Origin: an uncultured Ectothiorhodospiraceae bacterium
Lineage (GTDB): Bacteria > Pseudomonadota > Gammaproteobacteria > JAABTG01
Length of the DNA stretch: 64,000 nucleotides
Reading direction: 5' to 3'
NCBI GenBank assembly: GCA_937867305.1
Contig: CALMKJ010000156.1
Location: 12,011 to 76,010, forward strand
The notes under the pieces were generated by a model that ran no database searches, was not told where the DNA came from, and saw only the letters and a list, made by a program, of their open reading frames with translations. Both the position numbers and the translations under genes were made by a program. Shown here piece by piece: positions 1 through 63,469 of this stretch. How positions within the stretch are numbered: the first letter of the stretch is position 1; each line of letters begins with the position of its first letter.

Positions 1-1041
1 CTGCAACGGCACGACAAGGCTGGGCTGGTCACCGGAAGCAGACCGTTGCGCGACCGGTGTGTTCAACGCGCCCACCGTGGTCGCCGTCGACTTCCACATG
101 TAGATGCCCGGGTTGCGGTACAGGGCGCTGCCGTCGCTGGCCGCGACCACCGAGACCGTGACGGTGACGGTGCGCGGCGAGGTGAGCTTCCACCACATCC
201 CGAGCGTCGAGTTGGCGCCTTCGCCTGTCTCCCCGGTCTTCAAGTGGTTGTCGTAGTCGCGGCTCGTCCACGGCGCCCCGGACGGGGCCAGGTTGATCGG
301 GTGAGCGCACGCGATCATGTCGTTGTCGCATTCGATGGTGAACGTGGCCGGTGCCGACTTCGGTCCTTCGGTCCCGTCCACCGTCGCTGACACGGTCACC
401 GTGTGGTCGCCTGGAGGCACCGACGTGAGCTCGACGTTGCGAGACGCCCCGGTGGCGACCGGGATGGTCGAACCGTCCAGGTAGAGCGCGTAGTTGGTCG
501 CGCCGACCACCTCGTCCCACGTGATGATCGCGTCCACGTCACCCGGAATGACCGTTGCGGTCACGTTCGTCGGGGTCGTCGACGGGTCCGCCGGCCCCGC
601 CTCCACACCGGTCCCGTCGCAGTCGGACACGTGGTTCCCGCGACCCGAGTCCACGATCGCACCCGAGTCGGAGTCGTAGATGGCGTACGCCTTCACGATC
701 ACCCCGGCGCTGGACAGCACACAGATCCGGAACCCGTCCTCGTCGGCGTAGTAGCCGGCGATCCGCGACCCGACCGTCAGGTTGACGCCGCGGACACCGG
801 CCCCGTTGGACGCGACCGTCTCCGGGTAGGCGTCCTCATGGATCCGGTGCGCCTCGATCCCGACAGAGATCTGCTTCGCGTCCGAGACAGCCCTGGTGAC
901 GTAGGTCCGCTCACGGAACATCCCCATCGACTGGACCGCGATGACGGCCAGCAACGCGAAGATCGCCATACCGAGCAGCACGTCGAACATGGCGAGCCCA
1001 CGGTGGTCGCGGGCGGTGCCGCGGCGTCGAGGCGGAGTCAT
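1..1041 (-). CDS. prepilin-like secreted protein with fibronectin-III-like domain (N-terminus complete; C-terminus runs off window start; paralog of 62495..63469 product)
   Basis: Manual reverse-complement translation from ATG at about 1041 gives MTPPRRRGTARDHRGLAMFDVLLGMAIFALLAVIAVQSMGMFRERTYVTRAVSDAKQ... and stays open to position 1. Absent from ORF track because no stop lies in the window. The N-terminal 60 aa are closely similar to 62495..63469 (basic leader, Gly, then hydrophobic helix with Asp at +5). A class-3 motif TTTGCGCATGGTG lies about 45 nt upstream. Confidence 0.5.
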   Translation of the reverse strand, partial: MTPPRRRGTARDHRGLAMFDVLLGMAIFALLAVIAVQSMGMFRERTYVTRAVSDAKQISVGIEAHRIHEDAYPETVASNGAGVRGVNLTVGSRIAGYYADEDGFRICVLSSAGVIVKAYAIYDSDSGAIVDSGRGNHVSDCDGTGVEAGPADPSTTPTNVTATVIPGDVDAIITWDEVVGATNYALYLDGSTIPVATGASRNVELTSVPPGDHTVTVSATVDGTEGPKSAPATFTIECDNDMIACAHPINLAPSGAPWTSRDYDNHLKTGETGEGANSTLGMWWKLTSPRTVTVTVSVVAASDGSALYRNPGIYMWKSTATTVGALNTPVAQRSASGDQPSLVVPLQ

Positions 1042-1316
1042 AACGGGGTTTCCGGTCAGGTGGAGGATGGGCTTGTTTCCTTCCACCATGCGCAAAGAAG
1101 GGCCGGTTCAGGCTCCCCTCAGCCTGCTAGACCGGTTCGTCACGCCTGCGAGAAGGTCTGGGCGGACCGGTCGACCGGTGGCATGATCGTCGGCACCATG
1201 CCTGCCGCGAACCCGATTCCGAAGCCGGTGACCATCCTGGACGTGCGTTCAATCCCGGTGGACACACCGGACGAGGACGAACCGGAGGTCCCGTTGCGTC
1301 GGGCGGCGTAACGCCC

Positions 1317-1562
1317 TCAGTACGGCAGGTCGAGACCGGCGACCCACAGCACCATCAAGGTGACGAACGCGGTCGCCCCGACACCGACCAAGGCCCACCC
1401 GATGATGCGTTGACGGGCCGGGAAGTCGGTCAACGGCTCACCGGTCACCGAATGGGTTCGGCCGGCACGCACCGCCATGCCGCGGCGGGTGTTTGCACCC
1501 AGCATCGCGTTGCCCCAGGCGAGCACGAAGATGGAGCCCGCGAACGACCAGAGCCAGTTCAT
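1317..1562 (-). CDS. small membrane protein (81 aa, two predicted TM helices)
   Basis: Internal Met (MNWLWSFAGSIFVLAWGNAML...) of track ORF 1317..1829; the upstream part of that ORF is Arg-rich junk. Confidence 0.35.
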   Translation of the reverse strand: MNWLWSFAGSIFVLAWGNAMLGANTRRGMAVRAGRTHSVTGEPLTDFPARQRIIGWALVGVGATAFVTLMVLWVAGLDLPY

Positions 1563-1683
1563 GCAGCGGCCCCCGTCCAGGTGAGGCTGGTGTGGTCGGT
1601 GTGAGTCATGGTTGGTTCCCTGCGGTCGTGGATGTGCGGACGCTTCTCCTGTGCCACCACGCCGGCGCCGAGGATCCCCGGCT

Positions 1684-2157
1684 TCACGACCAGTGCTCCG
1701 GCACCGTGTCCGGCACCCGCGGCGGGACGTGACCGACCAAGGCGGCGCGCAGCTCGTCGCCGACCATCTCGGCGGCCGCGACATACAGGTCGTCGTGCCG
1801 TTCCAGGTCCGGGTCGTCGACCAGGGCACGGCACTCGGTAACCGTCAACCGCATCAGGTTCTCGACACCCTGGACGCGCGGGAACCCGAGCGCTTCCAGC
1901 CGCCGGCAACGCCACGACCAGTCGGTCGAGGCGTCCATGACAGCCAGCACCCGGTTCAGGTCCACGCCTTCGGCCCGCAGCTCGAGGACCGCGCCACGCA
2001 CCGTCATTGACGCGACAAGGTCGGCAAGGTCGTCCAACGGGGCACCGATCGTCGCAGCCACATCAGGGTCCTGGGCAGCGTCGACGGCGTGGACCGCGCG
2101 TGTCATCAACGCGACGTGCTCCGCCGTCCTGTCCAACCATGCCGGGTCGGTGCTCAC
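1684..2157 (-). CDS. hypothetical protein (157 aa), GTG start
   Basis: Track ORF with normal composition; its start is a GTGA overlap with the stop of the 2154..2297 ORF. Confidence 0.45.
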   Translation of the reverse strand: MSTDPAWLDRTAEHVALMTRAVHAVDAAQDPDVAATIGAPLDDLADLVASMTVRGAVLELRAEGVDLNRVLAVMDASTDWSWRCRRLEALGFPRVQGVENLMRLTVTECRALVDDPDLERHDDLYVAAAEMVGDELRAALVGHVPPRVPDTVPEHWS

Positions 2158-2297
2158 GACGCCCGCCTTCGGAGGGCCCGGCGCACACGCAGGTCGTACG
2201 CGTACGAGGTGGCCGCACCGAGTGCGACCCCGGTCGCGAACGTGACGAACGCGGACCCCACCGACCAGACCAGGTAGCCGAACAGGTCGTGGCTCAC
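2154..2297 (-). CDS. small hydrophobic protein (47 aa)
   Basis: GTG start overlaps the stop of 2294..4711 (GTGA), and its own stop overlaps the GTG of 1684..2157; single TM helix VSHDLFGYLVWSVGSAFVTFATGVALGAA. Confidence 0.3.
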   Translation of the reverse strand: MSHDLFGYLVWSVGSAFVTFATGVALGAATSYAYDLRVRRALRRRAS

Positions 2298-4711
2298 CGG
2301 AACGTCACCACCCTGGACTCGGCTTCCACCATGTGCCGCATCGACACCCAGCCGACGAACTTGCCCACCTTCGGCAGATGCGAAGTCCGGAACGTGGAGC
2401 CACCCGGAAGAGGCAGGTCGACCTGTTGACGGTTCGCCGACCACGGGGTCAGCACCTGTTCCAACGGCGACCAGTGCACCGGGTCACCTGACGCGAGCCG
2501 GTCCGGGGCCAACCGGTCGAACAACGCCAGATCCGCTTCCAGGTCCCGTACGCCCGCCTGGGTCAGGTACGACGTGCGAGCCACCCGGGCCGCGGAGACC
2601 CGCGACAGGACCGTCTCGACATCCTCACCGACCCGGTCAGCAACCCCGACGGCCAGTTCACGGTCACGGTCCCCGATGTACGGCAGATGCCATCCACCCA
2701 CCCCGACCAGGGTCGGGGTGGACGCCTCGTACGCGTCCCGCATCCGTTCCGCGACCATCCGGATCTCCGGTTGTGCGTCAGGGTGGCACCGTTGCGCGAA
2801 GTAGTTCTCCACCGGCCCGGTCCACACCGAGACGTGCATCATGTGCGGTTCCAGCAGCCGGTTCGTGATCGACTTGTGCACGCCCAGCTCCCGCAGCTCC
2901 GACCCGAGCTGGATCGTTGCCTCCCGGTGCAGGTCCCACTTGCGGCGAGCTACCGCTTCGGCTTCCGCGGCAACCGGGTCACCACCCTGCATGCCGGAAC
3001 GTTCACTGGCCCACACGACCGGGACAGCCGGGTGCGCACGAACATCGTCGATGACCTTCACGACAGGTCGGGCACGACTCGACGCCGAGTTCTTGGAGTT
3101 GTGCACGACGATGCCGTCGGCCACGAAGTTGTGCCACGGACCTTCTACTTCGATGTCGTAGGTCATCTGCACTCCCGCGTAACGAATCGCCTTGATCGCT
3201 ACCCACTTCCGGGCGATTCGCCGTGACCTGGCCTTCGGCTTCCAGTCAGGGTGTGGTTCCTTGTCCGCCGACGAGAAGACCGAAAGGTCGTCTCCGTTGT
3301 GCAGGGCGTCGGCGAAGCGGTCTTCGAGGTTGTTCGCATGAAGGTATCGGTGATGTGTGGCGCAGAGCGTGATGAGGTTGTCGAAGTTCTTGGCGAGACC
3401 GACGTCTTTCACCACCGGGACGATGTGATGGGCCACGAGGTCGCTGCCGCACCCTCCGATCTGGCACTTGAATCCGAACTTCTGATGTACGCGGTACGCC
3501 TCGTTCTGTGTCCAGCGTCCGATGTCGGCTCGTTCACTGGTGATGCCACCCTTCCACCAGTGGTGCTCAGCCCCACGCGCATGGCGTTGGTTTGTGCGCC
3601 GACCACGCGTCTTGGGGTTCTGGTAACGCAGACCCGTGTTCCACGGCTTGCGTCCTTTCAGGATCAGCGAGATGTCGTAGGGGATCTTGTGTCGCTGGAA
3701 CGACCGCTTGACCTGGTTGACGGTTACCCCAAGATCAGCAGCGATGGACGTCGCAGACGATCCCTCTTGCCGGCGGGCGAGTAGCCATGCCGGGTCGTCG
3801 AGGCAGGCGGGCTTCTCCGGGGCAACGCGCTTCCAGCCAAACTCGGCGTACGCGCGCTCTACGCGGTGGCGGGGGACGTCGAGACGGTCGGCGATCTGAC
3901 GGATCGTCATGCCTTCCGCCCTCAATGAGCCCACGGTCTCGCGATCAAGGAGCACCTGCCCGTTCGCTGCGAACATCGGGGAGTCTCCTTGGTAGAAGAC
4001 GAGGTCCTCACTGTTGCGGCGGAGGCCGGTGGCCTCTTCCAGCGTGAGCCAGCCCCGGTCTGTGAAGAAGAGGTGGGCCTTCGATGTTGTGATGACGTAC
4101 CCGTCGTCGAACTCAACCGTGTAGGTCTCTTTCTCACCAGACTCCCACACGTCTTTGACGTGTGTGTGGACGATCTCTCCGGTTTCCTCGTTGAGACACC
4201 TGAGCCACATCCTCGAGAGGTTGGTCCGAGTGTTGTATTCGACTTCGGGAGGGTTGGAGTACCAGCGCTTGAAGTCCGCGCCATTGATGACACGGCGGCC
4301 GTTCTCGTTGGACCGAGCAGGCAGGCCGTAGAGGCGAACGGCCTTATCGAAGCCGGTGTAGTGGGCACCGAGAAGCTTAGCCAACTCCGCGGGCCGGTAG
4401 TCGCGATCGTCGACCAGCAAGGATGTGTCGAACTTCCCGCGCTTCCGACGAGAGTGGCGTGTGCCTGAATGCCACTTCCGGAAGAGCTCGTCGATCCGCA
4501 TCTTTCCGCCGGCCGCACGACCGGCCTCAACCCCGTTAGGCCGGTCGAACCACAGCTCGACATCTCCAGCGAGGCACATGACAGCATGCGTGTTCTCCTC
4601 GGCGAGCACCCAACGGTGGTGGCGCTTCTCGAACGTGGTGATCCTGTCGCCGTCGGGACTGATCGAGTCGGCGATCACCTTCGCGTACACGAAGTCGTCT
4701 GACCTGTTCAT
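2294..4711 (-). CDS. thyX: FAD-dependent thymidylate synthase (ThyX)-like protein interrupted by an intein with an HNH homing-endonuclease domain
   Basis: Short N-extein ending ...KRHHRWVLAEENTHAVM, then an intein starting CLAGDVELWF and ending ...VVHN, with Ser at +1. The intein contains an HNH block (HHIVPV...CATHHRYLH). The C-extein has ThyX-like C-terminal blocks (HVSVWTGPVENYFAQRCHPDAQPEIRMVAERM, compared with ThyX ...VVTGNYRAWRHFIAMR...EIRRLA). Start placed at ATG of MNRSDDF, with an AGGAGG RBS and an ATGA overlap with the upstream stop. Confidence 0.55.
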   Translation of the reverse strand: MNRSDDFVYAKVIADSISPDGDRITTFEKRHHRWVLAEENTHAVMCLAGDVELWFDRPNGVEAGRAAGGKMRIDELFRKWHSGTRHSRRKRGKFDTSLLVDDRDYRPAELAKLLGAHYTGFDKAVRLYGLPARSNENGRRVINGADFKRWYSNPPEVEYNTRTNLSRMWLRCLNEETGEIVHTHVKDVWESGEKETYTVEFDDGYVITTSKAHLFFTDRGWLTLEEATGLRRNSEDLVFYQGDSPMFAANGQVLLDRETVGSLRAEGMTIRQIADRLDVPRHRVERAYAEFGWKRVAPEKPACLDDPAWLLARRQEGSSATSIAADLGVTVNQVKRSFQRHKIPYDISLILKGRKPWNTGLRYQNPKTRGRRTNQRHARGAEHHWWKGGITSERADIGRWTQNEAYRVHQKFGFKCQIGGCGSDLVAHHIVPVVKDVGLAKNFDNLITLCATHHRYLHANNLEDRFADALHNGDDLSVFSSADKEPHPDWKPKARSRRIARKWVAIKAIRYAGVQMTYDIEVEGPWHNFVADGIVVHNSKNSASSRARPVVKVIDDVRAHPAVPVVWASERSGMQGGDPVAAEAEAVARRKWDLHREATIQLGSELRELGVHKSITNRLLEPHMMHVSVWTGPVENYFAQRCHPDAQPEIRMVAERMRDAYEASTPTLVGVGGWHLPYIGDRDRELAVGVADRVGEDVETVLSRVSAARVARTSYLTQAGVRDLEADLALFDRLAPDRLASGDPVHWSPLEQVLTPWSANRQQVDLPLPGGSTFRTSHLPKVGKFVGWVSMRHMVEAESRVVTFR

Positions 4712-5154
4712 TCGGTCACCTCCTGCTGGTCGGGGCACACCCGGGCCACAGCCGGCAGGTCGCCGGTCAACACGTGACCGAACACGTCGCGGGCGTACCC
4801 GTGGGGTCGGTCGGTGAAGTGGAGCCGGTTCGGCGCCTCACCGTCACGCACGTACGAAGCCGGGTCGCCGAACTCCACGCCGGGCCGGTGGTGGTACACG
4901 CGGCGTTGCGCGTCAACGAACAGGTAGGTCTCCACCCGGTCGGTGCCGTTGTTGTACACGCGGGTCTCGTCGGTGGAGAACAGCCGCTTCACTTCGTACA
5001 GGCCCACCAGGACCGGTTCACCGGACTTGTCGAACTCGTAGCGCGACGACACGAGACGGAACGCCCACACGATCACCGGGTCTTCCGACCTGGTCAGCCG
5101 CAGCCCCACCGGGACCGGGGGTACCGGTACGTCGGCGGCGTGCTTGCCGGTCAC
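4708..5154 (-). CDS. hypothetical protein (about 148 aa)
   Basis: Track ORF 4708..5196; start moved to the internal GTG that forms a GTGA overlap with the stop of 5151..5390. Confidence 0.45.
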   Translation of the reverse strand: MTGKHAADVPVPPVPVGLRLTRSEDPVIVWAFRLVSSRYEFDKSGEPVLVGLYEVKRLFSTDETRVYNNGTDRVETYLFVDAQRRVYHHRPGVEFGDPASYVRDGEAPNRLHFTDRPHGYARDVFGHVLTGDLPAVARVCPDQQEVTE

Positions 5155-5390
5155 GAGTCCGACTCCGACGAACCGGCCGCGAACTGACGTGACCAAGCCT
5201 GGAACTCGGTGTACGTGCCGAACGGCCCGAACCTCTCCGGGTTCTCGACCCGGCCGCAGTCGACGTACTTGCCGCCCGGGAACCGCACCTGCATGCGGGG
5301 AGGCGTGTCACCGGGCACCGCCCTGAACAGCGTCACGACCGTGCCGCTCGGTAGAGAGTGGGAAGACGACCACACGTTAGGGGAGCTCAT
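5151..5390 (-). CDS. hypothetical protein (79 aa) sharing a C-terminal PERFGPFGTYTEFQAWSRQFAAG motif with the downstream dNTP hydrolase-like protein
   Basis: Internal ATG of track ORF 5151..5426. The motif is paralogous to PERYGPVGRTSAEFKAWGRRFSAG at the C-terminus of 5377..6216. Confidence 0.4.
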   Translation of the reverse strand: MSSPNVWSSSHSLPSGTVVTLFRAVPGDTPPRMQVRFPGGKYVDCGRVENPERFGPFGTYTEFQAWSRQFAAGSSESDS

Positions 5391-6216
5391 AGTCGTCCTG
5401 TGTGCGGGAAACGTCGTCGGATGCACCCGGCGCGTTCTCCGGCGTGACCGCCTCCGGCCAACCTGCGGAGAACCGTCGGCCCCAAGCCTTGAACTCGGCG
5501 GACGTGCGGCCGACAGGACCGTACCGCTCCGGTCCTTTGCCGGGCCGGTCGTCGAACTCGGGCCGGTTCTCCACGAACCAAGCCAGGTTGAGTGCGTGCC
5601 AGGCGACCGCGATCATGTGCTTGACCGCCATCTCAGGGTCGTAGTCCTCCCCCATCCAGAACAAGCTCCCGTGCCGCAGCATCGCCGAGTACGAGCTAGA
5701 CCACGGGTACCCGCGCTTCCAGTTGGGTGCGCCCGCCACATCGTCCGGGTACTTCATCTGGCCCCGTCCGTACAGGACGGCCAACTCCCACAACGGGCCC
5801 GCCGGGATCAGGTCGATCCGTGCCTCCTTCATCGACTTCGACCCACCCGAAGCGCTCGTGACCAGGCGTTCGCCGCGCTCCCGAGGAGTCGCCGGTGCAG
5901 GTGCCGGTGCGACCGGGGCGGGAACCGGGCGCAGGTCGGTGCGGTCAGTCGGTGCCGGGGTCGAAGTGACGAACACGTCCACGTCGAGCAGTTCACCGGT
6001 GAGAGCGTCCAGGACCGGAAGCCCGATACCCAACGCCAACACGACCTCGCCGCGGGCGCCACGGGAGTCCTCCCAACGAGGCAGGACCGCGACCGCGTCC
6101 GCATCCGTCGTGATGTGTGCGGCGTACCGGGAAAACTCGCCCCGTAGGTCGAACCCGATGGTGTCCGGGTGCTCCTTGCCGGTGCAGCCGGCACGGGAGA
6201 TCTGGCGCCCCGTCAC
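5377..6216 (-). CDS. dATP/dGTP diphosphohydrolase-domain (MazG-like nucleotide pyrophosphohydrolase) protein; start uncertain (alternative ATG at 5832 gives a 152-aa domain-only protein)
   Basis: Block KEARIDLIPAGPLWELAVLYGRGQMKYPDDVAGAPNWKRGYPWSSSYSAMLRHGSLFWMGEDYDPEMAVKHMIAVAWHALNLAWF matches the phage/plasmid dATP/dGTP diphosphohydrolase N-domain pattern. A long GTG start gives a GTGA overlap; the alternative ATG has a GGTGGG RBS. Confidence 0.5.
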   Translation of the reverse strand: MTGRQISRAGCTGKEHPDTIGFDLRGEFSRYAAHITTDADAVAVLPRWEDSRGARGEVVLALGIGLPVLDALTGELLDVDVFVTSTPAPTDRTDLRPVPAPVAPAPAPATPRERGERLVTSASGGSKSMKEARIDLIPAGPLWELAVLYGRGQMKYPDDVAGAPNWKRGYPWSSSYSAMLRHGSLFWMGEDYDPEMAVKHMIAVAWHALNLAWFVENRPEFDDRPGKGPERYGPVGRTSAEFKAWGRRFSAGWPEAVTPENAPGASDDVSRTQDDYELP

Positions 6217-6295
6217 CCGGTCATCGGACCCGACAGGTACACCGTGTCGATGCCGTGGTGCCGGGCCGGAAGCGGAGCGGCGGCGGGATTCGTCG

Positions 6296-6658
6296 TCATG
6301 CTGTTCCTGTGCCAGAAGCACCCAGCCAGCCGGCCAACCGGTTGTCCGGATGGTCGGCGAACTCGTTCAGGTACACGGTGTGCAGCAGCCACCCGATCGC
6401 GACCGTCGAGGCGAGCACCGTGAACGGGTACGCGGTCTGTGTCGCCACGAACAGCACCGCGAGCCACCGCCACCACCGGTAGGTGCGTGCAGGTGGCACC
6501 AGGAACCACGTCACGACGGCCGGGAGCAGGAACACGGCCAGCATGAGCGCCAACCCGCCTTGCATCAGCGCGAACGTCATGGCCCACGTGACCAACCCAC
6601 CGACGCCAACGCACGCGGCCCAGCCGGCGAGCACCGCGAACGGGTTGCGGGTCGTCAT
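6296..6658 (-). CDS. integral membrane protein (120 aa, 3-4 TM)
   Basis: Track ORF; hydrophobic throughout; ATGA overlap with upstream 6655..6852. Confidence 0.5.
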   Translation of the reverse strand: MTTRNPFAVLAGWAACVGVGGLVTWAMTFALMQGGLALMLAVFLLPAVVTWFLVPPARTYRWWRWLAVLFVATQTAYPFTVLASTVAIGWLLHTVYLNEFADHPDNRLAGWLGASGTGTA

Positions 6659-6852
6659 CGGGTCACACGCTCAGCAGTGACCACTGCCCGGTCCAACCCG
6701 AGAGCCGTGAACACGTCACGTGCCTCCGGTCCGGTGAGCTGCCGGTCCCGGACGGCCCGGGCCAGACGCAACGCGGCGTCCAACTGCATGTCCGCGGGGA
6801 CGTCGGGAACCGACCTGATCTGCTGCCAGTCCCGACCGACCTTCTGTGCCAT
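6655..6852 (-). CDS. hypothetical small protein (65 aa)
   Basis: Track ORF with second Met start; GAGG RBS 6-7 nt upstream. Confidence 0.4.
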   Translation of the reverse strand: MAQKVGRDWQQIRSVPDVPADMQLDAALRLARAVRDRQLTGPEARDVFTALGLDRAVVTAERVTR

Positions 6853-6941
6853 CACGACCTCGTCTCGCTCACGCGCGTTCGGATGCGGGTGACCCCGCTG
6901 TGGTCACGTTGTGTGCGGAGAGCTCCCGGCCGTGCACCCGT

Positions 6942-8225
6942 TCAGGCCGTCTCGACCAGCTCCGGTGCAGACGCGTCACGCATCCGGTTGAAGTCACCCG
7001 AAACCAGGTGCTCCACGGCCAGCTCCATCAGCCGTTCCTGCACCTGCTCGGTCGTCGAACCGAGAGGGGCTCCCGGGTACGCGGCAGCCTGGTTCAAGTA
7101 GGTGTGCCACCGTGACCGGGACACGACGTGGCCGCGGCGGGCCGCGGCCTGCTCTGCCTCGGAGGCGACCGTGAAGTCGCTCACCGGCTCGCATTCGGTC
7201 GCCACCCACGACTCGACGAGGACGGCAGCCAGGTTCCGCCACCGCAAGTCCAGGCGACGTTGCCCGCGCGCGTCGGTGACCTTCGACGACGCGCCGGCCG
7301 CAGCGGTCCGCATCCGTTGGATCGACTTCTTCGAGGGCCGGTCGAACGGGGCAACCGCGAACTCGGCGAGCGCCGCAGCGAACCTCGGGTCGGCGTCCAG
7401 GAGCCGTTCCACCTGGTCGGCGTCGTAGGAGTCCCACAAGGCCAGCACCCGCTCGTCGACATCCCGGGTCAGTGCGTCAGGGTGTTCGCTGTACCCGAGC
7501 ACAACGGCTGCGAACGTCTCCAGCGACCGGTACGCCAACCACGGGTCGGCCTTCAACAGCTTCAGCACCTCGGCCCGGTCCCGGTAGTCCTCTGGTCGGA
7601 CCGCGGCGGGGACACCGAGGATCTCCGCCGCCTTCTCCATGCCGAGCCGCATCCGGGGCCGGCCGCGCAGACCGTGGCATTGGGCCTCGAACTCGTCGAC
7701 CTTGTCGGCGTACTCGTGTCGTGCCGCCGTGTCGTCTCCGGGCTCCGGGTCGTAGGTGACTGTGTCGAGGACGAACCCGGACGGGTCGGTCGCGGTCCCG
7801 GTGCGGCGTTCGGCGCGGCGGACGTCGCGGATGCCTTGGACGATGTGGTTGGGGACGTGCTTGCGCAGCCACCCGCACGCTGAGGAGGTTCGGGCGATGG
7901 CGAAGTCGAAGTCGCGGCTGCCGGGGGTGAGGAGCTTGGCGGCGATCTTGGCGCGGACGTGGTCGGCGACCTCGTCGAGGATTCGGTACTCGACCTGGCT
8001 TCGGCCCAGGCTCGTGCCGATCACGTTGGTCGTCATCAAGGCGGTGGCGATGATGCTGCGTGCCGTCTGCTCGTCGAAGACGCCTTCGTCGTACGCGGCG
8101 ATGACTTCTTTCACCGCTCGGTCGATGGTGTCGGTGTCATCGAACTGGGACAGTTCGGCGGCGATGACGGCCGGGTCGCGGGTCGGGTTGAAGCAGGCGA
8201 AATGGGTCGCGGCAGGTGGGGTCAC
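6942..8225 (-). CDS. hypothetical protein (427 aa)
   Basis: Long ORF without Arg bias; GTG start lies 9 nt downstream of class-1 motif CCCCGCACACC. Confidence 0.55.
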   Translation of the reverse strand: MTPPAATHFACFNPTRDPAVIAAELSQFDDTDTIDRAVKEVIAAYDEGVFDEQTARSIIATALMTTNVIGTSLGRSQVEYRILDEVADHVRAKIAAKLLTPGSRDFDFAIARTSSACGWLRKHVPNHIVQGIRDVRRAERRTGTATDPSGFVLDTVTYDPEPGDDTAARHEYADKVDEFEAQCHGLRGRPRMRLGMEKAAEILGVPAAVRPEDYRDRAEVLKLLKADPWLAYRSLETFAAVVLGYSEHPDALTRDVDERVLALWDSYDADQVERLLDADPRFAAALAEFAVAPFDRPSKKSIQRMRTAAAGASSKVTDARGQRRLDLRWRNLAAVLVESWVATECEPVSDFTVASEAEQAAARRGHVVSRSRWHTYLNQAAAYPGAPLGSTTEQVQERLMELAVEHLVSGDFNRMRDASAPELVETA

Positions 8226-8312
8226 GGACCGCTGGTGTGCGGGGAGGCCCGTTCAGTGCTCCCTGGAACCCGTTCCAAGGCCCATTATGTGATGAGGATC
8301 ACTCTCTTGGTC

Positions 8313-12061: not shown

Positions 12062-12064
12062 GAG

Positions 12065-12628
12065 TCACGCCTTCTTCAGCAAGGTGACGACATCTTCGAG
12101 GTCTTTGCGCAGGTCGGCCATGTTGAGCCCGTGCACCGTCTTCGCGACCACGATCGACGCCTTCGCCGACGACGCCGGCAGGTCCGAGGACGGGGCCAAG
12201 CCCATCGACGCGAGCAGCGACCAGATCCGCTTCATCCGCTGCGGCCCGAGCTCGCCGGCCACCACCGAAGCCTCGAACACGTCCGAGGTGCTGATCTTGT
12301 CCAGGTCGCCGAGAACCTGGGTCGAAGACCGGTCCGCCGTCATGATCGCCGCGGTGAGGTCGGCCAGGTCGTTGTCGCACCCCAGTAGGTGGGACGCCAC
12401 GTCACGAGTCGACTGCTCCGCGGCCACCACGTCTGCTGCCTTCGCCGCGACCCTGCGGACCAGCCGGTTCGTGTGCGCCCGGTTCGACCGCGACGGCCGG
12501 CCGGTCGCACCGGGGTGGCTTTCGTCGCCGGTCTCCGGCGTCTCGTCGACGACGGGGTCAGCGTCGTGCAGCTCGATGTCGAGCTCCTCGACGTCCAGCG
12601 GAAACCCGGGTGAGGCGATCTCGGTCAC
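12065..12628 (-). CDS. hypothetical protein (187 aa), GTG start
   Basis: AGGAG RBS 6 nt upstream of GTG; class-3 motif about 45 nt upstream. Confidence 0.5.
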   Translation of the reverse strand: MTEIASPGFPLDVEELDIELHDADPVVDETPETGDESHPGATGRPSRSNRAHTNRLVRRVAAKAADVVAAEQSTRDVASHLLGCDNDLADLTAAIMTADRSSTQVLGDLDKISTSDVFEASVVAGELGPQRMKRIWSLLASMGLAPSSDLPASSAKASIVVAKTVHGLNMADLRKDLEDVVTLLKKA

Positions 12629-12639: not shown

Positions 12640-12870
12640 GAACTCAATGTGGTGGGCGGGTCGGGCACTGGTCACCATGCGCAAACCACGGCACGGGCGA
12701 CCGGTGTTACGCCCTCCCCTGTGCCAGGTGGGCCGCGTCGGGTCGCCGACAACAAGAACGCACCCGGTCCGTCTGGGCGCTGACCGGGTGCGGCGAACAC
12801 GAACCCGACGAGGGCCCTTGCTACGCCGCCAGAGGGGCGACGCCGTCTAGCCCGTGTTCGCCTTTCCCTG
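12640..12870 (-). promoter_or_regulatory. 230-bp intergenic leader carrying a class-3 motif (TTTGCGCATGGTG, about 45 nt before the 12628 GTG) and two TGGCACAGGG(G) class-2-like copies with no ORF behind them
   Basis: Seen directly; possible regulatory hub or small-RNA promoter. Confidence 0.3.
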
Positions 12871-17931: not shown

Positions 17932-18078
17932 AGGTGCCGGCCTCCTCGGCCAGCACCATGCGCAAACCTAGTGCTACCCCAATCCGGCATAGTCTGATGC
18001 GCGGAAAGATAGTCATAACGGACTATTGAGCGTGGCGTGCTCTTCCTTTGCGTTTCCGTGTGGCCTGCGTCACACGGG

Positions 18079-30365: not shown

Positions 30366-30544
30366 GGCCCCGTTTCGGTATCCGTTGAACGTTCCGTCAC
30401 CGGTTCGGGCCCTCATCGACCCCTGATCGCCCGGAGGGCGAAGTGTTGCGGGGGCGGGGGCGAGGTGTTGTGCGGGGTTCAGTCCGGGTGAACTGTCCGG
30501 TTATCGAACGTTCCGGGGTGCTGTTCGGCGCGTGTCGGTTGCGC

Positions 30545-33109
30545 ATGGTGTCGGGCATGAGGATCCCTGACCCGACGGTGTACGCGTTGACTCGTGTGAC
30601 GGGTCCGAACACGTTGCCGGCGACGATCGACCAGCGTGCGAACGCGTTCGCGACGACGACTGAGGACTGTGCGTGGGCGTCGTTGTGGATGACTCGTGAC
30701 GAGTCGGGGGTGCGCACGTACCTGGTGTTGGACGGCCCGGAAGGGAGCGTGTCGTCGGCGTCGGTGTCGTTGGCTCACGCGGTGGGTGCTCGTGCGGAGG
30801 TGGTGGAGTCGTTCCCGTCGCATCTGGCGCAGACTCCGGGGTTGGCCCGGATGGTGGTTCATGAGACTCGTTCGGTTGCGCGGCAGCCGATGGTGGGGAC
30901 GGATCCGGCGGAGATCGCACGCATCATGGCGGTGCATCTGCGGGTGGGCGACTGGGTGGGTGTGAGTGTTCGCCGTCCGACGGACAAGGAGTCGGTGCGC
31001 AACCAGGACTGGATCCAGCACCGGTTGACGGTGCAGGTGGGTGCGCACCAGTCGCAGTCGCGTGACGCACGCACCGTGTCGTTCTGGGCGGGGTCGTCGA
31101 GTAACCGTGCGGCCCGGTCGTTGTTGGCGCGAGCTGCGTCGGCGATGCAGGGGTTCGACTTGCAGGTGAAGGCGGAGTCGGTGACGCCGTGGGCGGGTGC
31201 GCGGGGTTGGTTGGTTGCGTCGTTGGCGGGTGTCGCGGTGTCGGTGGGGGCGGTGTTCGTGCCGAACGTTCCGTCGTCGGTGGCGTGGGGGTCGGTTGCC
31301 GCGGCGGCGGCCTTGGCCTTGGTCGGGGTGTTGCGTCTGGTGGGGGTGTTGTCGTGCCCGTCGTCGGTGGCACGGGACTTGGTGTCGGTCGGGGTGTTGC
31401 CGGTTCCGCCGAAGCGTCGTGGCCGGCCTGCTCCTCCTCGGGAGGCGGAGACGAGGCGGGACGGGAAGAAGGTTGCGGAGCGCCCTGGCGACTACCCGTT
31501 GCATCGCGCGGCGTTTCTGGTGCAACCGTCGATCTTCGTCGGGTTGGCGTCTCCGCATGCGGGGACGGATGCGGGTGCGGCGTCGGCTCAGCGTCGTTCG
31601 GTGCCGATCCCGATGACGGGCCGGATCGGTCCGTTGGTCGGGTTCGACGGGGACACACCCGCGTACTTGTCGAACACGGCGTCGTACGCGGGAGTGGCGG
31701 TGGTGGGTCGTCCGGGGTCGGGCAAGTCGGTGTTGGTGCGGTCGTTGTTCGGGTGGGCGTGCATGGAGCGGGTGCACCCGTCGGGGTTGCCGTCGGCACC
31801 GGGGGCGAACAACACGCTGATCGCGTTCGAGTCGAAGGACCATCACGCGGTGGAGGCGTACCGGGCGTGGTCCGCCGCGGCCGGTGACAAGCTGCTGGTG
31901 GTCGAGCTGGGAGACCCGGCGGCGTACGGGATCGACTTGTTCGCGACGCCTGGTTCGGTTGCGCAGCGGGCTGAGGCGTTCGTGAACGCGATGGTGTACG
32001 CGTTCGGTGACGGTGACATCCAGAACCGTTCGTTCGACGTGTTGAAGCGGATCTACACGGGTGCGTTGGCGTTGGACGAGCACCGGGACGTGTTGGACGG
32101 GGTGCCGTGGATCGACGGCGCGTCAGCGAGCGTGAACCATTTCGCGGATGTGCTGATCGGCAACCACGGCGACCCGCGGGCGGTCCAGTTGGCCCAGGAG
32201 GTGATGACCCGGTCTCGGGTTCCGGAGACGTGGTCTCCGAGTTTGGCGTTGGCTGCGGAGGCGCTGGCGTACTTGTTCGAGTCGCGGACCGAGGCGCAGC
32301 GCCGGTCGTTGGTGGAGGCGGCGCAGAACAAGGTGTCCCAGTTCGCGGCGTTGGAGCACTGGTGGGCTCCGACGAAACGGAAGGTGACGTGGGACCAGGT
32401 CTTGTCGACGACGCCGGGGCAGCGGGCTGTGGTGATCAACACGGGTGCGTCGGCGTCGGGCCCGCCGGTCGAGGACCGGTTGACCGAGCTGATGAGTGCC
32501 TTGGTCATGTTCACGTTGCAGCAGGCGATCCGCCGGTTGTGTGCCGGGTGGGAGGACGAGGGCCGGTCGGTGTCGATCTTCTCTGACGAGCTGAGCTTGT
32601 TGGCGGGCACGTCGGAGAAGGTGATCGCGTGGTTGAAGGAGCAGGGTCGGGCGTTCGGGGTGCGCCCGGTGTTGGCGACTCAGCGTCCCGCCCAGTTGCC
32701 GCCGAAGGTGCGGACGGTGATCTTGAACTTCGGCACCCTGATCTGCTTCAACCAGGATTCGGTCACGACGGCCGAGGAGGTGTCGCGTGAGATGTTCGGG
32801 GCCGACGGCCCGATCGAGGCAGCCGAGATCATGCACTTGCCGGACTACCACGCGATGGTGCGTGCGTATGTGGGGAAGGAACGGCAGCCGGCGTTCACGA
32901 TGAAGGCGGGCAACTTCGAGGCGGATCGTGCCGCGGCTGTGGAGTCGCAGGGGTACTCGGTACCGAACACGGTTCCTGGCGTGTCGCCGTTGCCTGTTCC
33001 GGCACCACCGGCACCGGTCGCGGACCCTGTTCCGGTGGTGCCGTTGGACCCGGCTGATGCTGAGGTGGACGCGAACTGTTACGGCGACCTGGACGGCGAC
33101 GGCCGGTGA
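30545..33109 (+). CDS. FtsK/SpoIIIE-family ATPase with two TM helices (coupling-protein/TraB-like), 855 aa
   Basis: Walker A VAVVGRPGSGKSVLVRSL; Walker B-like VSIFSDELSLLAG; a TM pair (WLVASLAGVAVSVGAVFV / AAALALVGVLRLVGVL) precedes the ATPase. The start ATG lies inside a class-3 motif TTGCGCATGGTGTCGGGCATG. Confidence 0.6.
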   Translation: MVSGMRIPDPTVYALTRVTGPNTLPATIDQRANAFATTTEDCAWASLWMTRDESGVRTYLVLDGPEGSVSSASVSLAHAVGARAEVVESFPSHLAQTPGLARMVVHETRSVARQPMVGTDPAEIARIMAVHLRVGDWVGVSVRRPTDKESVRNQDWIQHRLTVQVGAHQSQSRDARTVSFWAGSSSNRAARSLLARAASAMQGFDLQVKAESVTPWAGARGWLVASLAGVAVSVGAVFVPNVPSSVAWGSVAAAAALALVGVLRLVGVLSCPSSVARDLVSVGVLPVPPKRRGRPAPPREAETRRDGKKVAERPGDYPLHRAAFLVQPSIFVGLASPHAGTDAGAASAQRRSVPIPMTGRIGPLVGFDGDTPAYLSNTASYAGVAVVGRPGSGKSVLVRSLFGWACMERVHPSGLPSAPGANNTLIAFESKDHHAVEAYRAWSAAAGDKLLVVELGDPAAYGIDLFATPGSVAQRAEAFVNAMVYAFGDGDIQNRSFDVLKRIYTGALALDEHRDVLDGVPWIDGASASVNHFADVLIGNHGDPRAVQLAQEVMTRSRVPETWSPSLALAAEALAYLFESRTEAQRRSLVEAAQNKVSQFAALEHWWAPTKRKVTWDQVLSTTPGQRAVVINTGASASGPPVEDRLTELMSALVMFTLQQAIRRLCAGWEDEGRSVSIFSDELSLLAGTSEKVIAWLKEQGRAFGVRPVLATQRPAQLPPKVRTVILNFGTLICFNQDSVTTAEEVSREMFGADGPIEAAEIMHLPDYHAMVRAYVGKERQPAFTMKAGNFEADRAAAVESQGYSVPNTVPGVSPLPVPAPPAPVADPVPVVPLDPADAEVDANCYGDLDGDGR

Positions 33110-35177: not shown

Positions 35178-35207
35178 CACCGGCTCCCCTGCACCCGGTG
35201 TTTGCGC

Positions 35208-35387
35208 ATGGTGCCGGGCATGGAGAACAACAGCCCCGCCGGGTTCCGGTCACGCCTGCTCTCGGACATCACGCGCGAAGAGGAAGACCTGCAGGACTGG
35301 TTCCGTAGCCCGCAGGGCCAGATCGTGTTGGGTCTGGCTGGCATCGTGTTCATCCTGGTCGCGTTGTGGCGGGGGTTCTTCGGATGA
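35208..35387 (+). CDS. small membrane protein (about 59 aa)
   Basis: Start inside class-3 motif (TTTGCGCATGGTGCCGGGCATG); single TM helix IVLGLAGIVFILVALW. Confidence 0.35.
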   Translation: MVPGMENNSPAGFRSRLLSDITREEEDLQDWFRSPQGQIVLGLAGIVFILVALWRGFFG

Positions 35388-53654: not shown

Positions 53655-53681
53655 CGCTCCGGCGTTGGCGCATGGTGTCGG

Positions 53682-55581: not shown

Positions 55582-56589
55582 GTGCCTTTGCGCATGGTGT
55601 GGGGCGTCCCCCCTGAACTGCGTGAAAGGCGCCTGTCTGCGATGGCTGTCCACCTGCACGACACCGGTTCGCTGGTGCCTGCGGTCGTCCGTGCGCTTGC
55701 CGGCGTCGGGGTGGGCCATGGTCCGTTGCACGCGGTCACCATCCCGCCGTCGTGCAACACGTTCATCACCGACGGTGAGGCCGTGTTCGTGAAGGTGACG
55801 ACCGGTCCGACCGACCACGAGTACCTGGTGGCCAAGCACCTGGTCTCCGACCGGTTCCCGACACCGGAGCCGTTGACTCCTCCGACGACCGTGTCGCTCG
55901 GCCCGGGCCGGGAGGTGTGCCTGCTGCCGTACCGCTTCCACCGTGCTCACGCGACCGCGGTGTCGGCAGCAGAGACCGGTCACCTGGCTGGTCTGTTGTG
56001 GGGCGCCCGGCCACCGGTGTCTGCCCGCGGCACCCACTGGCATGCGTTGTTGTCCGCCTCGACGCGCAACGTCGACGGGGTCACGTGTGAGGAAACGGCT
56101 GGGCTGCTGCGGGGTCTGTTGGCTTCGACGGCGGACGCGTTGACCGAGTACACCCGGGTCCGGACCCCCAAGTCGGTGTTCGCTCACGGCGACTTGCACC
56201 GCCGGAACACGATGCGTGCCGAGTCGGGCGGTGCGATGCTGCTCGACTGGGAACGGGCCGGGGTGTGGTGGCCGGAGATGGAATGTGCCAAGTTCGTGCA
56301 GACATCTCTCACTGAACGGGAACATGCCGCACCGGACGGGTCGGTGTTCACTGAGAGGTCCAGTGACGTCGAGGCGTTCCTGGTGGCTTCCGAGGAGGCG
56401 TTGGGCCGGCCGTTGGACCTGGACCTCTTGGACTTGTGTGTGCGGTTCCGGGCCGCGGGTGCTGCCGCGTACCAGGCCCGGTGGGGCGTTCGGGAGGACA
56501 GACCAGACTGGTTCGACGCGGGTGTCGCGTTGGCTCGTGACGGCGTGGCCGCTGCCGGCTCGGAGCCCGGGCAGCAGGTGCTCGCATGA
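55582..56589 (+). CDS. APH/choline-kinase-family phosphotransferase
   Basis: Catalytic loop VFAHGDLHRRN and MLLDWERAG (the HGDLHxxN ... DWE signature); start inside class-3 motif. Confidence 0.5.
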   Translation: MPLRMVWGVPPELRERRLSAMAVHLHDTGSLVPAVVRALAGVGVGHGPLHAVTIPPSCNTFITDGEAVFVKVTTGPTDHEYLVAKHLVSDRFPTPEPLTPPTTVSLGPGREVCLLPYRFHRAHATAVSAAETGHLAGLLWGARPPVSARGTHWHALLSASTRNVDGVTCEETAGLLRGLLASTADALTEYTRVRTPKSVFAHGDLHRRNTMRAESGGAMLLDWERAGVWWPEMECAKFVQTSLTEREHAAPDGSVFTERSSDVEAFLVASEEALGRPLDLDLLDLCVRFRAAGAAAYQARWGVREDRPDWFDAGVALARDGVAAAGSEPGQQVLA

Positions 56590-58182: not shown

Positions 58183-58199
58183 GAACAAGGAGCCGACCC

Positions 58200-58760: not shown

Positions 58761-58788
58761 GGCGGGTCTTCCCGCACACAACCCAGCC

Positions 58789-61764: not shown

Positions 61765-62174
61765 CGCACGAGGCCGAGGTGCACGCCACCGGTCTCTCCG
61801 CACACAACCCGGACGTGACCAGCTTCCAGGTGTTCCGCCGCGTCGGAACCAAGAACGAGACCTGCCTGTACGGCGGCCGGCACACGGTCGTGTACGTCGA
61901 TTCGGTCTGGGTGACCCCGACGGGCGAGACCCGGCCTTACGACAACGGCTACGAGACGGGCGAGAACAAGCTGTTCGTCGACCAGGACGGCGAGGTGTAC
62001 GAGCGCGTCCAAGGCTTCGACTACTGCAGTGTCCCGCGGTGGGTCCGTGACAGCGACCGGAAGCGGTTCGAGCGCAGGTGGACCGACCCGGCCCGCGAAC
62101 TGACCGGCAACGGCTTGAACGGGTGCCCTTCCGGCGCCCCGTGGTGGGCTGTCGAAGACGAGCGCCGCCATTGA
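61761..62174 (+). CDS. hypothetical protein (137 aa)
   Basis: ATGA overlap with the upstream stop; tail of track ORF 61476..62174. Confidence 0.45.
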   Translation: MTHEAEVHATGLSAHNPDVTSFQVFRRVGTKNETCLYGGRHTVVYVDSVWVTPTGETRPYDNGYETGENKLFVDQDGEVYERVQGFDYCSVPRWVRDSDRKRFERRWTDPARELTGNGLNGCPSGAPWWAVEDERRH

Positions 62175-62416
62175 ACCGGGAGCCGAATCCGGCGGTCGGT
62201 CAGCGGTGGGTCCGCCGGGGCGACGGAACACTGTGGCGCGTCATTGGCCGGCGGCGCTCCGGATGGGTGCTGTCCAGTGGACCGGGACGTGTCCTGGTCG
62301 TCGGTCTGCACGAGTTGATCACCGACTTCGACCATGCGGGGTGCGACCACGACTACGCCTGCTGTTTCGAGCACGGGACGCACACGAACCCGCACCGAGG
62401 CTGCATGCTGCGCTGA
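62171..62416 (+). CDS. small Cys/His-rich protein (81 aa), TTG start
   Basis: Overlapping ATTGA junction; C-terminal CDHDYACCFEHGTHTNPHRGC cluster suggests metal binding. Confidence 0.3.
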   Translation: MNREPNPAVGQRWVRRGDGTLWRVIGRRRSGWVLSSGPGRVLVVGLHELITDFDHAGCDHDYACCFEHGTHTNPHRGCMLR

Positions 62417-62494
62417 GCGGTCGTCGGGGTGCGTGGAATGGCCCTCGTTTGCGCATGACCCTATGTAGAGGTTGTTGAAAGAAAAGGTCCCGTC

Positions 62495-63469
62495 ATGCGT
62501 CGACGCGTCTCGTTGTTCGTGCGTCCCAGCGCGCGCCGTCACGGGGAGTCCGGTCTTGCTCTGATGGACGTGCTCCTCGGTATGGCGATCTTCGCCCTGG
62601 TCGCTGTCATCGCCGTTCAGGCGTTCGGCATCTTCAAGCAGCGTGCCTATGTCACGCAGGCAGTCTCCGACGCCCACCAGGTGGGCATGGCGATCGCCGC
62701 AGCCATGACGGACCCCAACTTCATCCCCGGGCCTGGCATGGCGGACTCGCCGACGATCCCGACCGGGACGATCACCGACGACCAGTTGGGCGCGCTGGGT
62801 GCCAACCGGACCGCCGAGAACCGGATCGTGATCCAGGTGGACCCCGGTGTCGGGTACAACGTGTGCGTCGACAACCAGTACGCCTACGCCTGGTACGAGC
62901 AGGAGCCCGGCACCGTCACCCGGTCCGGGAAGCTGTCGGAATCCGAGCCCGGCTGCGAAGACTTCGTCAGCGGGGACCCCGTGTGCATCGACCCGAGCGA
63001 GACCCCGATCTGGATCGACCCGGAACCGGCCTACATGGAGGACTACAACCCGACCGTCAGCTACGACAGCTCCGACTTCGCTCTGCCGTGGGACGCCGGC
63101 ATCACTCAGGACTACTGGGCCGCCAACGGTCACAGCTGGTGGCAGGGCGACGGGCACACGTACACGCTCGACCCGTACAGCTCGTCCGGCGCGTGGGTGC
63201 TGCGCGACGGCGTCCAGTTCGGCAACGACTGGAACGGCGACCCGGTTCAGGTCGGGCGACTCGACAATCACTGGGTGTTCCCGTGGGACGAGTACGACGA
63301 GGCCGAGTACCAGGCATTGGTGGGCGACCGGTTCTACTGGAACGACGACGGCGCCACCTACACGGCCGACTTCGAGGGTTACGTGTACCGCAACGGCGAC
63401 CTGTTGACCCTGCAGGTGGAGGTACCGGCCGAAGACGGTCACTGGTACTGCGACTCCGGCGTCGGCTGA
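62495..63469 (+). CDS. prepilin-like secreted protein (Trp/Asp-rich globular domain); paralog of the 1..1041 product
   Basis: N-terminus MRRRVSLFVRPSARRHGESG|LALMDVLLGMAIFALVAVIAVQAFG is a class-III-signal-like leader (basic, Gly, hydrophobic helix, Asp at +5). GAAAGAAAAGG RBS; class-3 motif about 45 nt upstream. Confidence 0.5.
   Translation: MRRRVSLFVRPSARRHGESGLALMDVLLGMAIFALVAVIAVQAFGIFKQRAYVTQAVSDAHQVGMAIAAAMTDPNFIPGPGMADSPTIPTGTITDDQLGALGANRTAENRIVIQVDPGVGYNVCVDNQYAYAWYEQEPGTVTRSGKLSESEPGCEDFVSGDPVCIDPSETPIWIDPEPAYMEDYNPTVSYDSSDFALPWDAGITQDYWAANGHSWWQGDGHTYTLDPYSSSGAWVLRDGVQFGNDWNGDPVQVGRLDNHWVFPWDEYDEAEYQALVGDRFYWNDDGATYTADFEGYVYRNGDLLTLQVEVPAEDGHWYCDSGVG

Follow-up and report, generated by a model that had tools for sequence, protein, structure and literature searches.

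Here we describe two genes, which we call pilin A and pilin B, in a stretch of 64,000 nucleotides (nt) of contig CALMKJ010000156.1 (positions 12,011 to 76,010; the window refers to this whole stretch), whose G+C content is 67.9%. The two open reading frames (ORFs) exist as a preliminary description of this DNA had given them, A on the minus strand and B on the plus strand. The frame of A is open and runs past the left edge of the window, the full protein (database entry P0004) having 654 residues. The G+C content at third codon positions is 0.88-0.89 in both genes, the value expected of real genes here, and therefore both look coding. That the two genes had been said to bracket the window is an effect of the cutting points of the window: every protein tested lies on a single contig of 79,428 bp, and about 15 kb of the replicon lies beyond the 64 kb analysed. 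The two genes and their parts are as follows (the arrow marks the predicted cleavage site).

1..1041, minus strand: pilin A, the N-terminal 347 residues of a modular type IV pilin of 638 or 654 residues (from the translation and the full-length P0004).
997..1041, minus strand: predicted leader of A, MTPPRRRGTARDHRG, with five Lys and Arg residues, ending at Gly15 (codon 999..997); predicted prepilin-peptidase site G↓LAMFD (PilFind regular expression at residue 15).
592..996, minus strand: mature pilin module of A, made up of alpha1N (LAMFDVLLGMAIFALLAVIAVQSMGMF), the remainder of alpha1 and a small head with a beta-sheet; its Cys residues are Cys107 and Cys141 (counting from the ATG at 1041; from alignments A2 and A3 and a model by analogy with B).
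1..591, minus strand: first part of the adhesin-like region at the C-terminal end of A, comprising an Ig/FN3-like segment (WDEVVGATNYALYLDG and onwards) followed by the first of three repeats of about 130 residues, the last two of which lie outside the window.
62495..63469, plus strand: pilin B, a complete modular type IV pilin of 324 residues, identical to P0001 (exact database match).
62495..62554, plus strand: predicted leader of B, MRRRVSLFVRPSARRHGESG, 20 residues with six Lys and Arg, ending at Gly20; predicted site G↓LALMD, in register with solved pilins.
62555..62962, plus strand: mature pilin module of B, with alpha1 at residues 19-71, a short helix (95-100) within the alpha-beta loop, a sheet of four antiparallel strands (110-146), and Cys124 and Cys154.
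62963..63466, plus strand: C-terminal module of B, 168 residues, Trp/Asp-rich and acidic, with repeated (L/F)PW(D/E) motifs.

The start codon of A is uncertain, since an alternative in-frame ATG (1089..1087) lies inside the motif found upstream of the gene and is the start used in P0004. Counted from the downstream or the upstream ATG, the leader of A has 15 or 31 residues.

A and B are homologous over an N-terminal module of about 150 residues (BLASTP, E=4e-24, 38% identity over 167 residues). The preliminary description had called their N-termini nearly identical; the homology stands, while the stretch quoted for it, running from G to Q, is identical at 32 of its 43 positions (74%) and is better described as strongly similar. 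By definition, type IV pilins have a hydrophilic leader whose last residue is small (Gly or Ala) and about 21 mostly hydrophobic residues after the cleavage site (PMC8179133). In A as in B, the acidic residue at position +5 is followed by 22 consecutive uncharged residues, and each protein has a single predicted transmembrane segment. The PilFind rule (PMC3244431) looks for [GAS]-[uncharged]4-[DE], D and E being both accepted, followed by 14 uncharged residues, the whole within about 35 residues of the N-terminus of a protein with one transmembrane segment and fewer than 350 residues. B agrees with this rule at every point, and A departs from it solely in exceeding 350 residues, which it does because it is modular. 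No other called ORF of the window carries the PilFind pattern together with a single transmembrane segment.

An AlphaFold2 model of residues 1-156 of B, based on an alignment of 39 sequences, reached a predicted local distance difference test score (pLDDT) of 87.5 and a predicted template modelling score (pTM) of 0.74. The chain forms a 53-residue helix (19-71), then a loop that includes a short helix, then a set of four antiparallel strands. This agrees with the fold of type IV pilins, in which an alpha1 of about 50 residues projects from a globular head containing an antiparallel beta-sheet. The best structural matches of this module are type IV pilins of the type IVa (T4a) kind from Geobacter, Thermus, Myxococcus and Pseudomonas. 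As modelled, the hydrophobic segment is not a Sec signal peptide; it forms the first third of the continuous 53-residue helix that precedes the four-stranded sheet. Cys124 of B is nearly invariant in the family, with a second Cys about 30 residues further on (C124/C154 in B, C107/C141 in A); many type IV pilins, though not all, have a disulfide-bonded C-terminal region in the head.

Sequence comparison pointed to the same proteins. A profile made from an alignment of 39 family members (A3) matched, among the sequences of the Protein Data Bank (PDB), Geobacter PilA-N (E=2.4e-13, 2.1e-11 and 2.5e-11) and Thermus PilA4 (E=4.9e-4). The sequences are aligned in register, with the Gly that precedes the hydrophobic stretch falling on Gly(-1) of the pilins and the Asp on Glu5, and the match extends along alpha1 with the pattern AI..A.IA...F/Y..(Y/F)R.(R/K)AY...A.SD. 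Gly15 of A is likewise in register with Gly(-1) of the family and of the solved pilins. Single sequences compared by phmmer with Geobacter PilA-N gave E=2.8e-4 for A, in register, and E=1.2e-4 for B. Based on these four lines, that is, sequence, structure, rule-based prediction and family conservation (below), the N-terminal module of A and B is a type IV pilin module. The class III prepilin signal proposed in the preliminary description is thus supported by the conserved Gly and acidic +5, the register with solved pilins, the long helix and the PilFind rule.

An exhaustive profile search over 1.84 billion representatives showed the size of the family: 762 representatives matched at E<=1e-3, and 77 of them at E<=1e-10. 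Among the best 150 of these 762 matches, 145 have [GAS]x4[DE] followed by 14 uncharged residues, and these 145 listed homologues have Gly(-1) in 143 cases, Asp5 in 88 and Glu5 in 57. Within the group that has Asp at position +5 (the Asp5 clade), to which A and B belong, Gly(-1) is kept in 74 of 76 members and the residue at +5 is acidic in all 76. Homologues losing the Gly or the acidic residue, which had been named beforehand as the outcome that would speak against a prepilin signal, are not what is seen (Gly(-1) in 143/145 of those listed, +5 always acidic). The claim of an acidic residue at +5 holds in that the position is invariantly acidic, with the qualification that the residue in A and B is Asp and not the canonical Glu. 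Down the list, members of the Asp5 clade (such as G↓LALLDVLLGMAIFALIAVIAV and G↓SLILDILIGMAIFAL) give way gradually to textbook pilins beginning G↓FTLIELLVV; the nearest textbook-type pilin, P0078 (G↓FTLLETLAVMVIVGLLAAITVPQ), shares 31% identity with B over alpha1. The consensus N-terminus of the clade is G↓(L/S)(A/L)(L/I)LD(V/I)L(L/I)GMAIFAL, and its leaders are long and basic. Short members have 140-190 residues, with an alpha1N almost identical to that of A and B. Where source records gave a name to a clade member, it was "hypothetical protein" in two cases and "type II secretion system protein" in one. Judging by these comparisons, this is an unannotated actinobacterial pilin clade, missed by the pilin models of Pfam and NCBIfam.

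The C-terminal modules are different in the two proteins, and A and B are therefore best described as modular pilins with different adhesin-like modules. In B, the pilin module of 156 residues is followed by an acidic, Trp-rich module of 168 residues, whose composition (6.5% W, 13.7% D, and 19% D+E vs. 2.4% K+R) confirmed the Trp/Asp-rich tail noticed earlier. This tail is common only to P0002 and, in part, to P0005 and P0007 (alignment A1); it had no match in Pfam or PDB, and its structure model was of low confidence. In A, the pilin module is followed by about 500 residues that comprise the Ig/FN3-like segment and the three repeats. The repeats, each of about 130 residues and ending in (Y/F)RLxV, were picked out visually in P0004; self-BLAST did not detect them. 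No hidden Markov model confirms the fibronectin-III-like domain that had been proposed for A: the only Pfam matches are weak ones, to PKD (E=0.1), the sole match within the window, and to GLEYA in the full protein (E=3.7e-4).

The architecture of A is conserved in P0010, P0014, P0016, P0089 and P0094. Its closest relatives, P0014 and P0016, are full-length Asp5 orthologues (40% identity over 651 residues), and P0089, P0094 and P0123 are full-length orthologues with 31-38% identity over about 690 residues and canonical G↓FTM(I/V)E N-termini. The adhesin-like body of A therefore occurs on canonical and Asp5 pilin modules alike, and this strongly indicates, as far as homology can tell, that an Asp5 module works in the way a canonical pilin module does. 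The full-length orthologues of A also place A and B in two different orthologous groups, showing at the level of sequence comparison that the two genes are not recent duplicates.

Relatives of the clade were found in other loci (L001 to L005), the genome and the metagenome scans giving one locus each. In L001, from Nocardioides pinisoli (7313-11389), a clade member of 471 residues lies directly downstream of an FtsK/SpoIIIE-family gene of 755 residues; EcoRII-type restriction-modification genes and Xre/toxin-antitoxin genes in this region suggest that a mobile element has integrated here. In L002, on a metagenomic contig of 106 kb (1261-10614), three short Asp5 pilins and a G↓SILIE pilin are arranged in tandem and followed by a giant Big_9 protein. 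L003 (10001-15063) and L005 (10001-10465) both have a short pilin followed by a pilin-like protein that lacks the acidic +5 (G↓TMTLS) and by a Big_9 protein, and L003 also has a sortase; a short Asp5 pilin, a G↓TMTLS pilin-like protein and a giant Big_9 surface protein thus make up a recurring type of actinobacterial locus. The absence of an acidic +5 is the pattern of tip subunits (PMC10191384). Genes of the CoiA kind accompany some of these loci: that of a CoiA-like nuclease is upstream in L003, and one with CoiA_N is close to the pilins of L004. Two further copies were found in Paenarthrobacter sp. C1 (517-kb record), one of them with an FN3-like segment as in A. From the clustering of major-pilin-sized and minor-pilin-like genes, we argue that the clade does build filaments, to the extent that gene arrangement may reveal it. 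Type IV pilus loci are found in several actinobacterial families (PMC6668835; PMC12871210).

A short DNA motif connects the two pilin genes with other genes of the window. The preliminary description had noted TTTGCGCATG(G/A) in front of both genes; this 11-mer has eight matches in the window with at most one mismatch, vs. 0.84 expected. The conserved unit is a 13-mer, TTTGCGCATGGTG, of which the window has five exact copies and two copies with one mismatch, when 0.0012 exact copies are expected from the base composition. The sites are the following.

1084..1096, minus strand: 13-mer TTTGCGCATGGTG, upstream of pilin A or overlapping its start (11-mer at 1086-1096).
12673..12685, minus strand: exact 13-mer, heading a minus-strand transfer operon (12065-12628, 10829-12061 and the VirB4-like gene 8313-10832, which matches AAA_10).
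17954..17966, minus strand: exact 13-mer, upstream of an ORF of 168 residues (17425-17931).
30538..30550, plus strand: 13-mer with one mismatch, at the start of a coupling-protein-like gene (30443/30545-33109; TrwB_AAD_bind match).
35201..35213, plus strand: exact 13-mer, preceding a small transmembrane ORF and an FtsK/SpoIIIE-family gene of 1317 residues (36036-39989).
53665..53677, plus strand: 13-mer with one mismatch, preceding an FtsK-like gene (53682-55571).
55587..55599, plus strand: exact 13-mer, at the start of an APH-like kinase gene (to 56589).
62448..62458, plus strand: variant motif TTTGCGCATGA, upstream of pilin B, agreeing at 10 of 13 bases and beginning 47 nt before the ATG.

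At every site the 13-mer has the orientation of the gene downstream, and apart from the pilin genes it marks five or six transfer-related operons. Pilin B has just the first 10 bases of the 13-mer (TTTGCGCATGAcc). A motif thus lies upstream of both pilin genes, as had been described, although not at the equal spacing reported: its first base is 55 nt from the ATG in A and 47 nt in B, and the gap between the 11-mer and the ATG is 44 and 36 nt, respectively. Similarly, the motif had been called palindromic; it does contain the palindrome TGCGCA, and as a whole it is asymmetric. Outside the window, the 13-mer was found on the otherwise unrelated contig of L002 before each of the four tandem pilin genes (1216, 3259, 3988 and 4606, plus strand), three times exactly and once with a single mismatch; its distance to the start is about 45, 117 and 103 nt, and shorter at the fourth gene. 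L001, L003, L005 and the Arthrobacter locus described below do not have it. No sequence was conserved around the 13-mer, and neither pilin gene showed a sigma-70 consensus promoter. The ATG inside the motif was considered as a general leaderless start and rejected: it is in frame for A, the coupling-protein-like gene, the small transmembrane ORF and the kinase, and it meets stops at 12685, 53665, 62448 and in L002.

Judged by its gene content and relatives, the window is a conjugative-plasmid-like element related to megaplasmids of Micrococcales. Its plasmid-type genes are those of a VirB4-like AAA_10 ATPase (8313-10832, minus strand) and a TrwB-like coupling protein (30443-33109, plus strand), and it further encodes the two FtsK/SpoIIIE-family proteins (36036-39989 and 53682-55571, plus strand), a ParA-like ATPase and a PD-(D/E)XK nuclease. 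The region 6900-27100 is syntenic with part of the 375-kb plasmid NZ_CP099467 of Arthrobacter caoxuetaonis, the shared genes being those of the ParA-like ATPase, the PD-(D/E)XK nuclease, a protein of 1121 residues and the VirB4-like protein (57% identity). On megaplasmids of Arthrobacter, Pseudarthrobacter, Paenarthrobacter and Curtobacterium, the VirB4-like protein has counterparts with 50-57% identity, and on those of Bifidobacterium counterparts with about 30%; distant relatives are also found on Clostridium perfringens plasmids. The DNA of the window itself matched no known plasmid.

A phage origin is not supported: megablast of 20 kb against 50,697 phage records was empty, ten large proteins of unknown function had no match in PHROG, and the pilin profile found nothing in IMG/VR.

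Some other features of the window deserve mention. VirB4-like and TrwB-like proteins, which are of the single-stranded DNA type of type IV secretion system (T4SS), coexist here with a membrane-anchored FtsK/SpoIIIE protein of 1317 residues and a second FtsK-like protein, which are of the TraB-like, double-stranded DNA type of actinomycetes. An ArdC-like antirestriction protein/metallopeptidase followed by an S-adenosylmethionine-dependent methyltransferase (51333-53071, plus strand) represents functions typical of the leading regions of conjugative plasmids. At 2294-4738 (minus strand) there is a ThyX-type thymidylate synthase (Thy1 domain) split by a large intein with HNH endonuclease and helix-turn-helix domains. 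At 5377-6321 (minus strand), a dATP/dGTP diphosphohydrolase N-terminal domain (PF18909, E=4e-24) is joined to DUF4406, this being a nucleotide-pool enzyme commoner in phages than in plasmids. All window proteins that were looked up are singleton clusters and most of the large ones have no Pfam or PHROG family, so that the element is essentially unique in the databases searched. Next to pilin B lies one more gene:

63479..64000, plus strand: CvpA/MarP-like polytopic membrane protein, beginning 10 nt past the stop codon of pilin B and cut by the edge of the window (Pfam Colicin_V, E=1.2e-10; NCBIfam MarP_fam_protase, N-terminal part, E=8.6e-21).

This gene is probably co-transcribed with pilin B. 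The idea that its product is the missing prepilin peptidase is not supported, since the protein is of another family and lacks the GxGD motif. In the whole window, the only polytopic membrane ORFs are this one and the N-terminus of an FtsK-like protein, and neither has the GxGD motif.

We interpret A and B as type IV pilins of modular build, in which an adhesin-like module was grafted onto the C-terminal end of a part made up of class III signal and pilin module, and their genes as accessory genes of a conjugative plasmid of the VirB4/coupling-protein type. We assign this interpretation a probability of about 0.6. The proteins would insert in the membrane through the hydrophobic alpha1N, and a prepilin peptidase of the A24 family (PilD or TadV type) encoded by the host would cut after Gly20 in B and Gly15 in A. 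The mature proteins would then enter a type IV filament of the host, built of short clade pilins (140-190 residues), as minor and probably tip-exposed subunits, and the filament would display two different binding modules. We consider the cleavage by a host enzyme and the incorporation as minor or tip subunits to have slightly better than even odds. Given that no pilus-assembly genes are present in the visible 64 kb, the pilins probably depend on the machinery of the host. Because the pilin genes share the 13-mer with the transfer operons, they would probably be expressed together with conjugation, where they could aid contact between cells or between cells and surfaces; such co-expression for the sake of contact is proposed only tentatively. 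The boldest form of the proposal is that a plasmid of a monoderm actinobacterium co-regulates its T4SS and its own pilin adhesins by means of the 13-nt element, plugging the latter into an Asp5-clade filament of the host, and this we consider rather unlikely.

Several observations weigh against the interpretation of A and B as modular pilins of a conjugative plasmid. The clade is atypical in having Leu or Ser in place of Phe at +1 and Asp in place of Glu at +5, and in having Ala14 and Gln22, hence no Pro22, at the positions of Gly14 and Pro22 in many T4a pilins. Subunits with Asp5 could behave differently, since Glu5 is important for methylation and for assembly. In assembled filaments, Glu5 forms a salt bridge to the N-terminal amine of a neighbouring subunit (PMC10191384). 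The curated models of the pilin N-terminus (Pfam N_methyl PF07963, TIGR02532, IPR012902) gave no match for A or B at E<=1 in Pfam and NCBIfam, the sole related matches being sub-threshold ones to GspI (E=0.023) and Ppd (E=0.04-0.2), and Foldseek returned no pilin from PDB. There is no Peptidase_A24, T2SSE or T2SSF among the 33 largest ORFs of the window, which were scanned with about 20 short ORFs left out; this agrees with the earlier statement that the window has no prepilin peptidase. Additionally, no assembly ATPase, platform protein or prepilin peptidase is encoded within 10 kb of the homologues in L001-L005. Genes for T4a pili are typically scattered over many loci, and the loci of MSH pili lack a peptidase of their own (PMC6668835); the absence of machinery in cis is therefore not decisive. 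The syntenic region of the Arthrobacter plasmid has no pilin gene, which marks A and B as accessory. A tblastn search with four clade members against 72,556 known plasmids (PLSDB) found none either, and together these two results indicate that the link with conjugation is not general. From its distribution, we read the 13-mer as a candidate promoter or operator element of one regulon that links the pilins to the transfer genes.

The orphan state of the genes may also be explained if A and B carry a pilin-derived membrane anchor, a module that is no longer cleaved or polymerized, and act as surface adhesins or accessory factors of a Gram-positive-type T4SS. The absence of pilus machinery in cis, the non-canonical residues at +1 and +5, the position of the genes among transfer genes whose motif they share, and the homologue that directly follows an FtsK/SpoIIIE gene in Nocardioides pinisoli would all be accounted for in this way. 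However, Gly(-1) and Asp(+5) are essentially invariant in about 76 divergent members while the remainder of the sequence drifts to 30-40% identity, a pattern that fits selection for peptidase recognition and filament packing rather than for a plain anchor. Moreover, major-pilin-sized short members lie in tandem with minor-pilin-like genes, and orthologues of A carry fully canonical prepilin motifs. We consider it unlikely, on balance, that the module serves as an anchor only.

The proteins could instead be factors of interference or exclusion, that is, pilin-like subunits by which the plasmid poisons or caps host filaments and so blocks phages, competing plasmids or DNA uptake, or brings about surface exclusion. 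Orphan pilin genes on a mobile element without machinery would suit such a role, as would the CoiA-like nuclease genes near the homologues in L003, L004 and L005, and short pilins that are presumably chromosomal have almost the same alpha1N, which makes co-assembly plausible. Nevertheless, two distinct, large and conserved C-terminal modules, each with orthologues elsewhere, resemble binding domains more than caps, and this role seems quite improbable. In a third explanation, A and B are pseudopilins of a Tad system, minor subunits like TadE and TadF that are processed by TadV and found in Flp pili, the commonest type IV filaments of Actinobacteria. TadV does cleave after Gly in motifs of the G↓xxxxE type. 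Tad systems are also widespread in Actinobacteria, often without recognizable minor pilins (PMC6668835). Against this, there was no match to the models of TadE (PF07811) or of Flp, a short pilin with a G↓xxxxEY motif, and the 53-residue alpha1, the four-stranded head and the sequence matches point to T4a-type pilins, and the nearest canonical relatives are G↓FTLLE pilins; we see little chance that A and B are Tad subunits. Least of all do we expect ordinary Sec signal peptides on secreted or wall-associated adhesins, cut by signal peptidase I (e.g., after VQA), for although the n-region is basic and B has the small-x-small sequence V-Q-A after its hydrophobic stretch, the helix is unbroken for 53 residues, the segment aligns residue by residue with the mature N-terminus of solved pilins, and the position of VQA is variable in the family while Gly(-1) and Asp5 are not.

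Modular pilins as such are a known and widespread design, represented by more than 1,200 proteins, and FN3 (IPR003961) is among the domains commonly grafted (PMC8179133). One of the closest parallels to A and B, regarded as modular pilins, is that of PilB and PilC of Streptococcus sanguinis, in which a small pilin module with a class III signal carries a bulky ligand-binding module at the C-terminus, and which are minor and likely tip-exposed pilins (PMC8179133). The streptococcal proteins have Gly and Glu5, match IPR012902 and are encoded in a pil locus with PilD, PilF and PilG, whereas A and B have Asp5 and Leu1, are missed by the curated models and are encoded on a conjugative plasmid with no machinery nearby. 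In comparison with the major pilins Geobacter PilA-N and Thermus thermophilus PilA4, A and B have Leu for Phe1, Asp for Glu5, Ala for Gly14 and Gln for Pro22, a long basic leader (15-20 residues or more) and additional C-terminal modules.

Another parallel is found in the thin pilus of the IncI1 plasmid R64, where the plasmid encodes minor type IV pilins, the PilV adhesins, that keep the N-terminal part constant and alternate the C-terminal part used for mating contact. R64 encodes the complete type IVb machinery, including a prepilin peptidase, and varies PilV by means of a shufflon. A and B, with one shared N-terminal module and two C-terminal modules, are similar to PilV in design, the likeness being one of design and not of sequence comparison. 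They differ from it in that there is no machinery or shufflon in the 64-kb window, the two modules are encoded by two separate genes, and the host is monoderm. As regards processing, the MSH loci that lack a prepilin peptidase set a precedent for cleavage in trans, although these loci encode their own ATPase and platform protein (PMC6668835), neither of which is present in the window.

What is new here is the occurrence of modular type IV pilins of an unrecognized Asp5 clade, orphaned on a conjugative plasmid; the modular design itself was already known. Type IV pilins are hard to recognize by sequence, and this clade was hidden from the pilin models of Pfam and NCBIfam, its members being annotated as hypothetical. 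At the 50% identity level it comprises about 80 representatives or more, through which the catalogue of type IV filaments gains a set of actinobacterial pilins, large modular adhesins among them. The clade also offers a natural test of whether Asp can stand in for the near-universal Glu5. If the boldest form of the proposal is true, the clade with Asp5 and Leu1 would define a distinct actinobacterial type IV filament with an unrecognized assembly machinery. The setting is also unusual, as orphan pilins with different binding modules have a highly specific, promoter-proximal 13-mer in common with transfer operons. This leads to the testable hypothesis that cell contact in some conjugation systems of the Gram-positive type, which have no known mating pilus, is made by type IV filaments of the host. 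In that case, the type IV filament would be a mating or contact organelle of Gram-positive-type conjugation.

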